Assembly (NCBI GenBank): GCA_964435115.1
Contig: CAYSYM010000012.1
Coordinates: 1,088 to 65,087 of the forward strand
DNA from: an uncultured Chloroflexota bacterium
GTDB taxonomy: Bacteria; Chloroflexota; UBA6077; CF-72
Length of the DNA stretch: 64,000 nt
Direction of reading: 5' to 3'
Each line of letters opens with the position of its first letter. The first letter of the stretch is position 1. Position numbers and translations under genes: made by a program. The notes under the pieces are model-generated. The model had not been told where the DNA came from. It saw nothing but the letters and a program-made list of their open reading frames with translations, and made no database searches. Below, in pieces: positions 2,774-28,554 of the stretch.

Positions 2774-3726
2774 GCCCGCTGGGTCGTCTCTTCGCCCAGC
2801 AGACCGGTGGGCTTGAAGATCAGAATCAGGACGAGGAGCCCGAACACGACCGCCTGGGTCCAGCGCGGGTCCCAGATCCGATCAGAGATCGCGGCGATGA
2901 TACCGATGACCATCCCGCCGAGGAACGCGCCCTGGATGTTGCCAATGCCGCCCATGACGGCGGCGGTGAACGCGTAGAGGCCGTTGCGGAAGCCCTGGAA
3001 GAACCAGGCCGAGTTGTTGTACAGGCCGTAGATCGTGCCCGCCGCGCCGGCCAGCGCCCCGCCCAGCAGGAAGGTCAGGGCGATGGTCAGGTTGATGTCG
3101 ATGCCCATCATCGCCGCGGCGTCACGATCCTGGGCGGTCGCGCGCATCGCCTTCCCGAGCCGGGTGCGCTGCACGAACAGGTGGAGCGCGACCATGAGTG
3201 GGATCGAGATCGCGATGGCGAGCAGGTCCTTGAGCGTGAACAGCACTTGCGTGCGGATGCCGAAGACGTCGTTGAAGATGTCCACGCGCGGCACGAGGTC
3301 CGGGAAGTTGACCTGGGACGCGCCCTTCCAGAGCAGCCCCACGTTGACCAGGATGAACGAGACGCCGATGGCGGAGATGAGCGGCGCCAGGCGGGGCGCG
3401 TTCCTCAACCGGCGGTAGGCGAGCCGCTCGATGCTCACGTTGAGGAACGCCGCGACGACCATGGCCACGAGGATCGCCCCGGCGAGCAAGACGGCGATCG
3501 TGGGCGGCGGCAGGAGGTAGGCCTGCCGCTCCCCGAGCAGCCCCGGGACCCAGGTGACGAGTGTCAGGGCGACCATCGTCCCGATCATGAAGACGTCGCC
3601 GTGGGCGAAGTTGATGAGCTCGATGATCCCGTACACCAGTGTGTAGCCGAGCGCGACCAGCGAGATGATGGCGCCGTTGGCGATGCCGATCAGCAGCACC
3701 TGCAGGACTTCGTCGTACCACTGCAT
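2770..3726 (-). CDS. livH: branched-chain amino acid ABC transporter permease (LivH-like)
   Basis: 318-aa hydrophobic ORF of the LivH/BPD permease type. First permease after the binding-protein gene. Confidence 0.9.
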   Translation of the reverse strand: MQWYDEVLQVLLIGIANGAIISLVALGYTLVYGIIELINFAHGDVFMIGTMVALTLVTWVPGLLGERQAYLLPPPTIAVLLAGAILVAMVVAAFLNVSIERLAYRRLRNAPRLAPLISAIGVSFILVNVGLLWKGASQVNFPDLVPRVDIFNDVFGIRTQVLFTLKDLLAIAISIPLMVALHLFVQRTRLGKAMRATAQDRDAAAMMGIDINLTIALTFLLGGALAGAAGTIYGLYNNSAWFFQGFRNGLYAFTAAVMGGIGNIQGAFLGGMVIGIIAAISDRIWDPRWTQAVVFGLLVLILIFKPTGLLGEETTQRA

Positions 3727-27410: not shown

Positions 27411-27836
27411 TCAGGCCAGGAGCTGCCCCCACGTCCTGACGCGCTCCATGGCGACCGCAATCACGGGCCGGCCTTCGAGCTCCATGGCGCGGTACTGCGG
27501 GTACTTCTCGCGGAGCGATGCGACGGCCTCGGCGTGCTCGGGGCCCGATGCGAGCAGCCGAGCTCGTCCACGGACCAGGACGTATCCGAGCTGTGACCAG
27601 TCCTCGGCGTAGCGATCGACGACCACGGCCGCGCGAGGGTTCTCCGCCAGGTTGCGCAAGCGCTTCAGCCGCCAGGGGTTGCCCACCTTCGGCTTGCGAT
27701 CGACCACGGAGTAGAGCGTCTGGCCCACCACCGCGAAGCACACAGGCACGACATGGGGGGCTCCGCTGGCGTCCGCGGTGGCGAGGTGGCCGACGCGCTG
27801 CGCGGCCAGGAACGTTCGGGCGTCGCTCGGCAGGGT
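27411..27836 (-). CDS. pyridoxamine 5'-phosphate oxidase-like (F420-dependent PPOX class) protein
   Basis: ARTFLAAQRVGHLATADASGAPHVVPVCFAVVGQTLY...LRNLAENPRAAVVVDRY...VLVRGRARLL resembles the PPOX split-barrel fold. Start approximate, because the upstream ORF extension is low complexity. Confidence 0.6.
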   Translation of the reverse strand, partial: TLPSDARTFLAAQRVGHLATADASGAPHVVPVCFAVVGQTLYSVVDRKPKVGNPWRLKRLRNLAENPRAAVVVDRYAEDWSQLGYVLVRGRARLLASGPEHAEAVASLREKYPQYRAMELEGRPVIAVAMERVRTWGQLLA

Positions 27837-28137
27837 GCGACCGGTGGGTCCAGGCCGCCGAGCGTGCTCTTCACCTCCGCCTCGCCGCCCCGCTCGATCA
27901 GCTCCGTGCACGGTGCACCGCCGCCAGGCGAGAGCATACCCGGCCGGGCGCCCAGGGGCGCCCGAGCGCCCTGGCGGTAGCCCGGGCCCGGCCTGTGGTG
28001 GCGGCTGTCCCAACACGTGGCCCGATCCGCCTCATCGTCTCGCGGCGGCAGGCAGCGAAGCGGCGACCCGGCGGGACCGGCGCTTCGCCGCGGCCGCGCC
28101 CGCTACTGGGGCGGCCGGACGTGGCAGACTGAGGTAC

Positions 28138-28554
28138 ATGAGCGAGGCCGAACGGCCGGGCGGCGCGCCCCTAGTCGTCCTGTTCGACGGGACGTGAGGG
28201 TTTTGAACACGGGCCGTGCGCTGGCTCAGAGCGCGCGACCGAGCCGGCCGTGTGCTGGCGATCCCCAACCAGACACCCGGCGTGCCGCAGCGGTATGGCC
28301 TCAGCCGCGCCGACGTCGACCGCGCGGTGTGGTCGATCGACGGCCATGGCCGCAAGCTCGCCGGCGCGGCCGCGGCCAACCGCGCGCTGGAAGCGCTGGG
28401 CGGAGGCTGGGTGGTCCTCGCCCGCCTGTACCGCTTGCCGCCGCTCGGCTGGCTGGAGGATCGGGTCTACGACTGGGTGGCCCGGCACCGGAGTTGGCTC
28501 TCGCGCTGGTGGGGCGCTACGCCCGAGTTGGACCGACCGGTTGGGGAGGGGTGA
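28138..28554 (+). CDS. DCC-family (DUF393) thiol-disulfide oxidoreductase with two in-frame TGA codons replacing the CxxC cysteines; candidate UxxU selenoprotein (or a doubly-nonsense pseudogene)
   Basis: In frame: MSEAERPGGAPLVVLFDGT-TGA-GF-TGA-TRAVRWLRARDRAGRVLAIPNQ...LARLYRLPPLGWLEDRVYDWVARHRSWLS. TGA at 28195-97 and 28204-06 sit exactly at the two Cys positions of the family motif vLFYDGdCxlCnrwVrfl. The rest of the domain (112 aa after the second TGA, present as ORF 28216-28554) is intact. ATG at 28138 preceded by GAGG. Confidence 0.5.
28215..28237 (+). ncRNA. candidate bacterial SECIS-like hairpin downstream of the two UGA codons
   Basis: 8-bp GC-rich stem CGUGCGCU/AGCGCGCG with a 7-nt apical loop GGCUCAG. 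The loop G lies 17 nt after the second UGA and 26 nt after the first, inside the usual 16-37 nt bSECIS window. Hairpins like this are frequent by chance in 70%-GC DNA. Confidence 0.25.

Follow-up and report, generated by a model that had tools for sequence, protein, structure and literature searches.

Does a redox gene whose two catalytic Cys codons are both replaced by in-frame TGA encode a selenoprotein, or is it dead? A locus in a 64,000-nt stretch of DNA (hereafter, the window) from an uncultured Chloroflexota bacterium with 72% GC raises this question. The frame that opens at ATG 28138 reads MSEAERPGGAPLVVLFDGT(stop)GF(stop)TRAVRWLRARDRAGRV...GEG(stop). When Cys was substituted for both internal stops, a Pfam scan matched the product to the DCC1-like family PF04134 with a score of 76.2 bits (cut-off 27.8, E 6.1e-21), and to no other family at E <= 0.01; NCBIfam gave 0 matches to the window protein. 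It spans the profile from position 1 to 112 (length 113), in agreement with an earlier sequence-only reading of this DNA, which took the rest of the domain to be intact. That reading had also placed the TGAs exactly on the two redox Cys codons of the DCC motif, and alignment with Cys-type homologues agrees: every column of D-G-T-[UGA]-G-F-[UGA] has its counterpart in DGTCGFC, e.g., in P0002 (LFDGTCGFCTR), and Cys occupies the aligned positions in P0002, P0003, P0007, P0008, P0010 and others. The protein thus has the DxxCxxC feature of the DCC family provided that UGA is read as Sec or Cys. In the predicted structure of the closest Cys-type homologue, which has a thioredoxin-like fold, the motif sits at the N-terminal end of helix 1, where UxxU would take the place of CxxC. 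The C-terminal CxxxxxC pair present in most relatives is missing from the window copy. The features of the locus are collected in Table 1.

Table 1. Features of the DCC1-like locus, in window coordinates.
Feature	Position	Strand	Description and basis
Shine-Dalgarno-like GAGG	28131..28134	+	3 nt upstream of start codon; read from sequence
DCC1-like oxidoreductase CDS	28138..28554	+	138 codons including two UGA; translation, PF04134 match
UGA1, proposed Sec	28195..28197	+	First (N-terminal) Cys position of DxxCxxC
UGA2, proposed Sec	28204..28206	+	Second Cys position of DxxCxxC
Hairpin H1	28215..28237	+	8-bp stem CGUGCGCU/AGCGCGCG, loop GGCUCAG; MFE folds
Hairpin H2, proposed SelB-binding core	28243..28259	+	GCCGGC-CGUGU-GCUGGC, encodes Ala-Gly-Arg-Val-Leu-Ala; conservation, compensatory changes
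Truncated ORF P0001	28252..28554	+	100 aa, beginning MLAIPNQ; public gene-caller annotation instead of full gene
Terminator TGA of the gene	28552-28554	+	Translation

A search with (A)GRVLA[LI]PN(Q), a peptide pattern that carries no information on the TGAs, brought up related loci, and TGA stood at the first Cys position in 57/57 of the loci obtained in this way. The sequence-only reading had proposed examining both codons in orthologues. Among 42 non-redundant genes the first position is always TGA, never TAA, TAG or TGC, and the second is TGA in 36 and TGC in 6, giving 36 UxxU and 6 UxxC forms; CxxU was never found in the clade. The in-frame stops are TGA in 78/78 cases, without a single TAA or TAG, and the true terminators of the same genes (41 orthologues) are distributed over TGA (18), TAG (15) and TAA (8). 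Two genes recovered by protein search, L004 and L005, have 57% and 53% identity to the window protein and different neighbours, and read LFDGT(stop)GV(stop)TR; two more UxxU genes, L074 and L076, carry other downstream peptides. Three assemblies made independently for the same species (L001-L003) share the identical double TGA. Approximately 40 distinct orthologues from several phyla share 50-68% protein identity with the window protein. The loci come from MAGs of Chloroflexota, Dormibacterota, Actinomycetes, Acidiferrales and Dehalococcoidia and from metagenomes, with the taxonomy of the carriers assigned from Lon homologues. Many of the carrier MAGs are labelled SMAG, a label from which a soil origin is inferred. 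Carriers include the assembly GCA_027310525.1 and the MAGs CADDYW01, CAVXYC01 and DATLRG01. Beyond subclade-level neighbours, the related loci showed no conserved gene neighbourhood; the Cys-type relative L075 adjoins a gene for an FAD-dependent disulfide reductase.

Conservation extends to the coding frame on both sides of the stops. Upstream, the LLFDGT frame is kept with synonymous variation; at the amino acid level L, L, F, D and G never change, while each is written with 2-6 synonymous codons. In all, amino acid conservation covers 8-12 codons ahead of UGA1 as well as the two that separate the UGAs, and because the peptide is conserved on both sides, translation must pass both UGAs. Decay of the orthologues had been named as a finding that would speak against recoding, and the orthologues proved to be intact, the great majority being free of other stops or frameshifts (L013 and L026 may have C-terminal frameshifts). 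Recurrence of the same TGAs at the same codons in 42 non-redundant orthologues is, as far as comparative data go, more than chance, and the alignment demonstrates strong purifying selection on both UGAs as UGA across at least 42 non-redundant genes. Public annotation cuts every member of the clade at the second UGA, so that the catalytic motif is invisible in protein databases; N-terminal truncation is an imperfect proxy for the Sec type, as P0177 and P0184 are CxxC genes with mis-called starts.

Comparison of the orthologues also establishes that two RNA hairpins within 65 nt after the UGAs are selected at the RNA level. The proximal one, H1, corresponds to the hairpin that the sequence-only reading had proposed as a SECIS element within bSECIS spacing. 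The bSECIS model (PMC13188914) calls for an apical loop of 3-9 nt, a stem of >=4 bp, G in the first two loop positions, a distance of 16-37 nt from the UGA and a dG no higher than -7.5 kcal/mol. The H1 loop begins 25 nt past UGA1 and 16 nt past UGA2, and window H1 agrees with the model in every respect for both UGAs (-13.1 kcal/mol); three additional outer pairs lengthen it to 28210-28241. That fit holds for the window itself, but a perfect-stem H1 fits the model for both UGAs in only 20/41 relatives. The H1 region is stabler than synonymous recodings in 41/41 orthologues (mean z -1.73), and the folding energy of the window sequence is ordinary for its composition when compared with dinucleotide shuffles (z = 0.11). 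RNAalifold predicted no consensus helix at H1, the register of which differs among subclades; pair counting across orthologues gave 66.6% paired for the window register, and the joint covariation score of H1 in this register and H2 was not significant.

The universally conserved element is instead H2, which lies further downstream and was absent from the sequence-only reading. Its family form, GCYGGCCGKGUGCUGGC with the loop CGKGU, was found in every Sec-type sequence examined, 60 loci each contain a single copy of the exact motif GCYGGCCGKGTGCTGGC, and H2 is the sole consensus helix predicted by RNAalifold. Its synonymous sites are frozen: GGC in 42/42, GTG in 42/42, CTG in 41/42, and an Arg codon that is CGU or CGG only. 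The loop nucleotide K is accordingly G or U only, and CGC, which dominates in other Arg columns, never appears at the H2 Arg codon. Pairing was retained in 99.6% of cells, with 3 pairs changed on both sides, a result reached by 0/500 shuffles; the compensatory evidence comes from three sequences. Like the H1 region, H2 is stabler than synonymous recodings in 41/41 genes. It agrees with the bSECIS model in loop and stem, and in energy in 40/41 cases, but at 51 nt from UGA1 and 42 nt from UGA2 it lies outside the 16-37 nt range (PMC13188914). Judged from this arrangement in the sequences, the putative SECIS layout is non-canonical. Rfam contained no family at gathering score in the whole window, with matches around the TGAs at chance level only (E > 3). 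H2 is absent from five Cys-type genes (L067, L069, L071, L073 and L075), and the peptide of Cys-type homologues at this position is variable (SGLVNA, RGRLTF, EGRLEV and others) in comparison with AGRVLA. An exception is the Cys-type representative P0186, which encodes AGRVLV, and AGRVL therefore fails as a strict marker of the Sec type.

The genes needed for Sec insertion were sought around the locus and its relatives. The 64-kb window and ~280 kb of flanks from related loci contained no selA, selB, selD or tRNA-Sec, as is expected by chance at that sampling. When E. coli SelA, SelB and SelD served as tblastn queries, no hit arose in the window or in any of the loci (345 kb, including 20 kb of E. 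coli query loci, which were excluded), and ARAGORN detected only a tRNA-Leu in the window, with no tRNA-Sec. A 97-nt ‘tRNA-Thr’ adjoining the gene in L023 was treated as a false positive, as it falls within what looks like antisense coding sequence and Rfam gave no match to it. A scan of the window for other selenoprotein genes (TGA with high-GC3 coding on both sides) found none, giving two antisense artefacts only. Use of Sec is well documented in Chloroflexota, where up to 49 selenoprotein genes per MAG have been reported (PMC13326102), and Sec occurs in hydrogenases of Chloroflexota and Acidobacteriota (PMC13582414).

Several alternatives to Sec insertion have to be weighed against these observations. 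Global reassignment of UGA was rejected, as the sequence-only reading had anticipated: TGA ends this gene and 18/41 of its orthologues, and it is an ordinary stop in the window, where the 31 long high-GC3 ORFs terminate in TGA (17), TAG (12) or TAA (2). That TGA is the commonest ordinary stop, and that a single change turns TGC into TGA, would also suit a gene recently inactivated by two nonsense mutations, or an error of sequencing or assembly. However, the same two TGAs recur in the three assemblies and across phyla with neither TAA nor TAG in their place, synonymous sites and structure are conserved directly downstream of them, and the diversity of the sequences together with the different neighbours of the related loci excludes copies of one contaminant. 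Comparative data effectively refute a pseudogene or sequencing error, which we regard as extremely improbable. It is also very unlikely that the UGAs are simply never read through, with translation of a downstream ORF (e.g., from GTG 28216 or ATG 28252) producing a DCC domain that has lost its redox motif and the upstream part serving as an untranslated or separately translated leader. Gene callers do annotate such an ORF, and one subclade has no canonical start codon upstream of UGA1 and an ATG after UGA2 (TR-M-ARW). Against this, the codons before and between the UGAs are maintained as amino acids with synonymous variation, those preceding UGA1 correspond to beta-strand 1 plus DGx, with which the Pfam domain begins, only TGA is found among the stops, each exactly on a Cys column, and by structural prediction a thioredoxin fold would not be expected to form once strand 1 and the first part of helix 1 were lost.

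A subtler possibility accepts recoding but has one or both UGAs read as Cys by a SelB-dependent tRNA-ReC (selC*) acting with a SECIS, so that the product would be CxxC, UxxC or CxxU. Genes resembling tRNA-ReC occur in ~56% of genomes encoding UxxU hydrogenases, compared with ~2% of the remaining Sec-type genomes, and the same study notes that Cys may then be inserted at one UGA or at both (PMC13582414). A conserved UGA with conserved hairpins is equally compatible with Cys insertion, and the UxxC relatives indicate that Cys is tolerated at position 2. On the other hand, a Cys product could use plain UGC, which makes the lasting UGA at position 1 (42/42) hard to explain, and the existence of SelL demonstrates that true UxxU diselenide proteins are found in nature (PMC2397514). 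The window and flanks showed no tRNA-ReC-like gene, a result that is uninformative at that sampling. Overall, we consider Cys insertion rather unlikely. Sec recoding of both redox Cys codons, the interpretation favored by the sequence-only reading over a dead gene, has strong support, because the TGAs, the frame on both sides and the downstream RNA structure are conserved in divergent orthologues. It is likely, from the sequence comparisons, that the gene encodes a 138-residue thioredoxin-fold DCC1-like (PF04134) oxidoreductase in which Sec replaces both Cys of the redox motif (D-G-T-U-G-F-U).

If both UGAs are read as Sec, an in-ORF SECIS would recruit SelB with Sec-tRNA(Sec), and UGA1 would be decoded, followed by UGA2 nine nucleotides on. 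The invariant distal H2 is the candidate SelB-binding element; in its loop, C-G-[G/U]-G-U, positions 2-3 are G followed by G/U, in agreement with the consensus for bacterial SECIS elements. The proximal H1, which varies, may act as a spacer with structure of its own, as a further docking site or as a site of pausing; in the window, H1 on its own also fits the canonical SECIS model. By analogy with CxxC DCC proteins and SelL, the protein would cycle between a diselenol and an intramolecular diselenide while reducing a substrate, and the UxxC relatives would form a selenenylsulfide in place of the diselenide. The predicted activity of the DCC1-like product of 28138-28554 is that of a thiol/selenol-disulfide oxidoreductase.

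The closest parallel to this proposed chemistry is SelL. Two papers (PMC2397514, PMC2398784), both citing Shchedrina et al. 2007, describe the SelL or ‘Prx-like 2’ UxxU proteins in fish, invertebrates and marine bacteria (the marine bacteria in PMC2397514), report that the diselenide was demonstrated for SelL, and present SelL as restricted to aquatic organisms. SelL resembles the proposed window protein in its thioredoxin-like fold, in having Sec for both Cys of CxxC, in UGAs 9 nt apart and in a bacterial SECIS inside the CDS. However, the window protein belongs to an unrelated family, matching PF04134 only and no peroxiredoxin-like model; it would work like SelL without being a member. The DCC clade also has a different SECIS layout, with two hairpins of which the conserved one is at 42 and 51 nt, and its carriers are MAGs of Chloroflexota, Dormibacterota, Actinomycetes and Acidiferrales, many of them SMAG (inferred soil), in contrast to the aquatic distribution described for SelL.

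The sequence-only reading had supposed UxxU to be otherwise confined to eukaryotic SelL. This was mistaken, as UxxU is already known in several bacterial families: besides bacterial SelL, it is listed for Prx-like, metal-binding (NF041115) and FmdB-family selenoproteins (PMC13188914) and occurs in Group 4 [NiFeSe] hydrogenases (PMC13582414). The large subunits of the latter carry an N-terminal UXXU, CXXU or UXXC (PMC13582414, 2026) and share with the DCC clade bacterial UxxU forms with single-Sec relatives, a Sec/Cys mosaic in the tree, occurrence in Chloroflexota and Acidobacteriota, and the tRNA-ReC caveat; one downstream SECIS has been proposed to serve both of their UGAs (PMC13582414). In these large enzymes Sec residues are ligands of the Ni-Fe centre, whereas in the DCC clade they would make up the redox motif of a small protein with a thioredoxin fold, and CxxU, dominant in the hydrogenases, never occurs in the DCC clade, where all members are UxxU or UxxC. 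The Cys-type DCC proteins (PF04134/DUF393), which include Arabidopsis DCC1, B. subtilis YuxK, P0002, P0003, P0008 and P0010, have the same domain and DxxCxxC position and, by prediction, the same fold as the window protein, with up to 65% identity (P0002) and Cys rather than Sec. In Arabidopsis, the partner protein that DCC1 reduces is CA2 of complex I (PMC7598583). The thioredoxin-, glutaredoxin- and DsbA-like UxxC selenoproteins (Table 1 of PMC13188914) have Sec at the N-terminal nucleophilic Cys of a thioredoxin fold, and six non-redundant members of the DCC clade are exactly UxxC in the same manner. They differ from those proteins in Pfam family, which is not in that table, and most members of the clade have a second Sec.

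No DCC selenoprotein was found in the 2026 inventory of 119 prokaryotic selenoprotein families, in NCBIfam or in a literature search, nor in the main text of the BSepDB paper. The gene very probably yields a two-Sec product, and its family is missing from current selenoprotein catalogues. More tentatively, and with considerable doubt, the locus could be a founding member of an uncatalogued family of DCC-type diselenide oxidoreductases in soil Chloroflexota, Dormibacterota and neighbouring phyla, with a new class of bacterial SECIS in which a variable spacer hairpin comes first and an invariant SelB-binding hairpin, 42-51 nt downstream, dictates AGRVLA through its sequence. If true, the new class would extend the 16-37 nt rule of all current bacterial selenoprotein predictors; the conserved hairpin at 42 and 51 nt, which constrains the peptide AGRVLA, lies outside the spacing assumed by bSECISearch-type tools. 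The clade may also offer a testable system for asking how SelB handles a pair of UGAs at 9-nt spacing and what the maximum SECIS-codon distance is in bacteria, and its UxxU, UxxC and nested CxxC relatives (the latter being P0002/P0003 and P0008/P0010) form a natural series for Sec/Cys exchange. A widespread thioredoxin-fold family, PF04134, would be added to the list of bacterial selenoproteins, as one of very few bacterial families with UxxU, likely forming a diselenide, and in terrestrial-type lineages as opposed to the aquatic ones of SelL.

PF04134 comprises the DCC1-like thiol-disulfide oxidoreductases, formerly DUF393. With cysteine placed at both internal stops, the 138-residue product of the gene matches this Pfam profile at 76.2 bits (threshold, 27.8) over 112 of 113 positions; no model in NCBIfam release 20 matches it. 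Translation from the ATG reproduces exactly the frame and TGA positions of the sequence-only reading, and alignment with Cys-type (CxxC) homologues carrying LFDGTCGFCTR places the two TGAs (as RNA, UGA1 and UGA2) on both cysteines of the DxxCxxC motif, as that reading had proposed. Its further claim that TGA is not globally reassigned also holds: long ORFs in the window (71.6% G+C) end in TGA (17/31), TAG (12/31) or TAA (2/31), and as TGA is the commonest ordinary stop, the code is not reassigned. The public annotation contains only a 100-aa ORF from Met 28252 (28252-28554; P0001, GCA_027310525.1, locus L002 511-813), and the catalytic motif is therefore absent from protein databases; most relatives are likewise annotated short, with starts at MARW.., MRARD.. 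or MLALPNQ... Between the gene and its divergent PNPOx-like neighbor lie ~390 bp of GC-rich DNA (27750-28137) without a convincing ORF, where a consensus scan found no sigma-70-type promoter and no intrinsic terminator.

Features of the DCC1-like gene and its surroundings (window coordinates)
Feature	Position	Strand	Remarks
PNPOx-like gene	27411-27749	minus	divergent from DCC gene
GAGG	28131-28134	+	precedes ATG 28138
DCC1-like CDS	28138 (ATG)-28554	+	MSEAERPGGAPLVVLFDGT(stop)GF(stop)TRAVRWLRARDRAGRVLAIPNQ...PVGEG(stop)
UGA1, first in-frame TGA	28195-28197	+	from translation
UGA2, second in-frame TGA	28204-28206	+	from translation
Hairpin H1	28215-28237	+	8-bp stem, loop GGCUCAG
Hairpin H2	28243-28259	+	GCCGGC-CGUGU-GCUGGC, encodes Ala-Gly-Arg-Val-Leu-Ala
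Terminator TGA	28552-28554	+	from translation

Of the 40 relatives returned by a protein search, about half are 100-118 residues long and begin just after the CxxC position, as expected when gene callers run into an in-frame stop. Upstream of two of these, P0019 (802-kb ENA contig) and P0024 (JGI contigs), which are 57 and 53% identical to the window protein and have unrelated neighbors, the DNA reads LILLFDGT(stop)GV(stop)TRMARW and LVVLFDGT(stop)GV(stop)TRMARW, respectively. Further loci were gathered by the downstream peptide pattern (A)GRVLA[LI]PN(Q), which is blind to the TGAs: 19 from species-representative genomes (mostly Chloroflexota/Anaerolineae, with five from Dormibacterota and one each from Actinomycetes, Acidiferrales and Dehalococcoidia) and 38 from metagenomes. 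The sequence-only reading had weighed Sec recoding against a dead gene and pointed to relatives at both positions, and these favor recoding: the first Cys codon is TGA in every pattern-gathered locus, and the second is TGA in 36/42 non-redundant sequences and TGC in 6/42. Position 1 is thus always Sec (as UGA) and position 2 Sec or Cys; CxxU was never found. The in-frame stops are never TAA or TAG, although these genes terminate in TGA (18), TAG (15) or TAA (8). Before UGA1, the residues L-L-F-D-G are invariant or nearly so, each with two to six synonymous codons, a signature of translation there. In a rough neighbor-joining tree, Sec-type (UxxU or UxxC) genes form one cluster with two Cys-type lineages (P0002/P0003 and P0008/P0010) nested inside, and UxxC forms arose at least three separate times, a pattern typical of dynamic Sec/Cys exchange. 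Two UxxC copies, L013 and L026, have C-terminal halves that continue into unrelated tails of 171 and 110 aa, possible frameshifts or assembly errors, and may be decaying.

There is next to no chance that the gene is a pseudogene or the TGAs sequencing errors: three independent assemblies of this species (L001-L003) share an identical double TGA and the TGAs are kept across relatives, which excludes both explanations for practical purposes. A short product beginning after UGA2 is what annotators call, but it is very improbable, being at odds with the protein-level conservation upstream of the UGAs and with the fold. The confident AlphaFold model (pLDDT 95.8) of P0002, the closest Cys-type homologue at 65% identity to the window protein, runs strand-helix-strand ... 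strand-strand-helix before a helical tail, and helix 1 carries CxxC at its N-terminus. That one or both UGAs are decoded as Cys by a SelB-dependent tRNA (tRNA-ReC) is unlikely, although tRNA-ReC was specifically associated with UxxU genomes in a hydrogenase study (PMC13582414). Sec insertion remains our preferred reading. None of selA, selB, selD or tRNA-Sec occurs in the window or the flanks of related loci, which is uninformative at such sampling. Lon protease from the window has an NCBI protein identical to it (100%), and the closest named relatives of this Lon, at 64% identity, belong to Chloroflexota MAGs. Sec use is common in Chloroflexota: Dehalococcoidia MAGs in BSepDB have 46-49 selenoprotein genes (PMC13326102), and both Chloroflexota and Acidobacteriota possess Sec-type Group 4 hydrogenases (PMC13582414). 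A 97-nt "tRNA-Thr(cgt)" called by ARAGORN just downstream of the DCC gene in L023 (3607-3703) is treated as a false positive, since the site is apparently opposite-strand coding sequence without an Rfam match.

RNA structure was assessed in a gap-free alignment of 41 non-redundant segments, from UGA1 to +75. The bacterial SECIS (bSECIS) model calls for a loop of 3-9 nt, a stem of ≥4 bp, G in the first two loop positions, a distance of 16-37 nt from the UGA and dG ≤ -7.5 (PMC13188914). The downstream hairpin placed within this spacing by the sequence-only reading stands for the window itself, where H1 fits the whole model for both UGAs (loop start 25 and 16 nt downstream, -13.1 kcal/mol), but not family-wide, as a perfect-stem hairpin fits it for both UGAs in only 20/41 sequences. 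The register of H1 differs between subclades; when pairs are counted in a single register, H1 is 66.6% paired, and the joint H1 and H2 covariation score is no better than shuffles. Compared with synonymous recodings that keep the peptide, both the H1 region (mean z -1.73) and the H2 region (mean z -1.76) are the more stable in 41/41 genes.

H2 is the sole helix predicted by RNAalifold from the 41 sequences, and its motif, GCYGGCCGKGTGCTGGC, occurs exactly once per locus in 60 loci. Its synonymous sites are frozen (Gly GGC 42/42, Val GTG 42/42, Leu CTG 41/42), whereas elsewhere in these genes conserved Gly, Leu, Ala and Arg columns draw on three to six codons. The loop Arg codon is CGU or CGG, never the CGC that dominates other Arg columns, and the loop is therefore always C-G-[G/U]-G-U; the bacterial SECIS consensus has G then G or U in the first loop positions (PMC13188914). 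The lone CUA (Leu) variant, in L052, is matched by a GCU (Ala) variant to give a U-A pair. Profile searching of the whole library brought up two UxxU genes whose peptide differs here, L076 (AGRVSA) and L074 (NRRVRI), both retaining a CGUGU-loop hairpin at the same position via compensating changes. With these added, 99.6% of cells are paired and in three pairs both partners have changed; not one shuffle out of 500 attains any of the H2 measures, and slid registers pair only 19-56% of cells. UGA1 and UGA2 precede H2 by 51 and 42 nt, respectively (3 nt less in L025, where one codon is deleted), farther than the 16-37 nt of the model, so the SECIS arrangement of this family does not fit the standard spacing rule. 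UxxC relatives retain H1 and H2; H2 is thus not specific to the second UGA.

The peptide encoded by H2 falls on strand 2 of the fold. At this position the Cys-type homologues compared vary (SGLVNA, RGRLTF, EGRLEV...), and no H2-like hairpin occurs in the sequenced Cys-type genes L067, L069, L071, L073 and L075; the best reading of AGRVLA in the Sec-type clade is therefore that the RNA dictates it. The Cys-type representative P0186 carries AGRVLV, so that the link of AGRVLA to the Sec type is strong, not absolute. Cys-type L072 (P0003) has, after its CxxC, a shortened H2 look-alike, GCCGGCCGGCUGGC, encoding PAGRLA. Such Cys-type genes (L072, P0186), like the nested lineages P0002/P0003 and P0008/P0010, may have reverted from Sec to Cys and kept traces of a SECIS.

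The "TRMARWVRRRD" subclade (Dormibacterota and Actinomycetes MAGs: L016, L017, L020, L025, L048, L050, L051, L057) may have unusual starts. Eight genes, all but L025 and L048, have no ATG, GTG or TTG in frame from the stop upstream as far as UGA1, and in those two the sole such codons lie 30-36 codons upstream. The peptide ..IADPLVLIFDGT before UGA1 (codons -12 to -1; L016 ~2990-3025, L017 ~2636-2672) is conserved with synonymous changes, and a conserved Ile codon (ATA or ATC), with a TAnnnT box 4-7 nt ahead of it, stands 11-13 codons before UGA1. From these features the mRNA looks leaderless, with a non-canonical AUA or AUC start.

Position 1 of the motif is the exposed nucleophile in thioredoxin-fold enzymes. 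The only characterized DCC member found, Arabidopsis DCC1, reduces a complex I subunit (PMC7598583). The window protein ends ...ATPELDRPVGEG (28522-28551), without the C-terminal P-E-C-x-x-P-x-x-x-C cysteine pair present in ~25/42 Sec-type relatives and many Cys-type proteins; a dozen relatives end PEW.., and this possible resolving or relay pair is thus dispensable. Comparison of related loci revealed no conserved gene neighborhood pointing to a partner. Single-lineage neighbors, none conserved clade-wide, are possible pointers to partners: an Aminotran_5 protein of 552-567 aa and the cysteine desulfurase/selenocysteine lyase type directly downstream of Sec-type genes (L005 10432-12090, L006 4008-5711, L007 1088-2746), and, beside Cys-type DCC genes, a downstream pyridine-nucleotide disulfide oxidoreductase (Pyr_redox_2 plus dimerisation domain; L075 759-2161) and an FMN_red protein (L073 579-1103).

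Judged from these comparisons, the UGAs are demonstrably maintained as UGA and translated through, and selection acts on two RNA hairpins downstream. In the mechanism we propose, SelB with Sec-tRNA(Sec) would dock on an in-ORF SECIS and place Sec first at UGA1, next at UGA2. The SelB-binding hairpin would be H2, whose G-[G/U] loop is invariant, and H1 would be either a structured spacer that positions H2 close to the mRNA entrance or an additional site for docking or pausing. Speculatively, H1 would still be folded with UGA1 in the A site, because it begins ~10 nt after UGA1, and partly melted with UGA2 there, which could offset the 9-nt shift between the UGAs. The product would cycle between diselenol and diselenide, and UxxC forms via a selenenylsulfide. 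Because the redox potential of diselenides is very low and their reduction difficult (PMC2397514), the protein might depend on a dedicated reductase or serve to bind a metal or metalloid.

The sequence-only reading took UxxU as otherwise described for eukaryotic SelL, but bacterial examples are already recorded: SelL/Prx-like proteins of marine bacteria (PMC2397514), metal-binding protein NF041115 and the FmdB family (PMC13188914), and Group 4 hydrogenases (PMC13582414). The 119-family table of a May 2026 review (PMC13188914) lists none of PF04134, DCC, DUF393 and YuxK, nor do the deep-Sep supplements or the BSepDB text (PMC13326102), though an unsearchable supplement or database may hold the family; a literature search found no paper joining selenoprotein with DUF393 or DCC terms. 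Like known selenoproteins, the window gene would have Sec for Cys in a thioredoxin-fold redox motif, here in the rare UxxU form. The DCC selenoprotein family is not categorically new; that it is real, and a new family within a known kind, is well supported by comparative evidence, and it is relevant to selenium biology and genome annotation.
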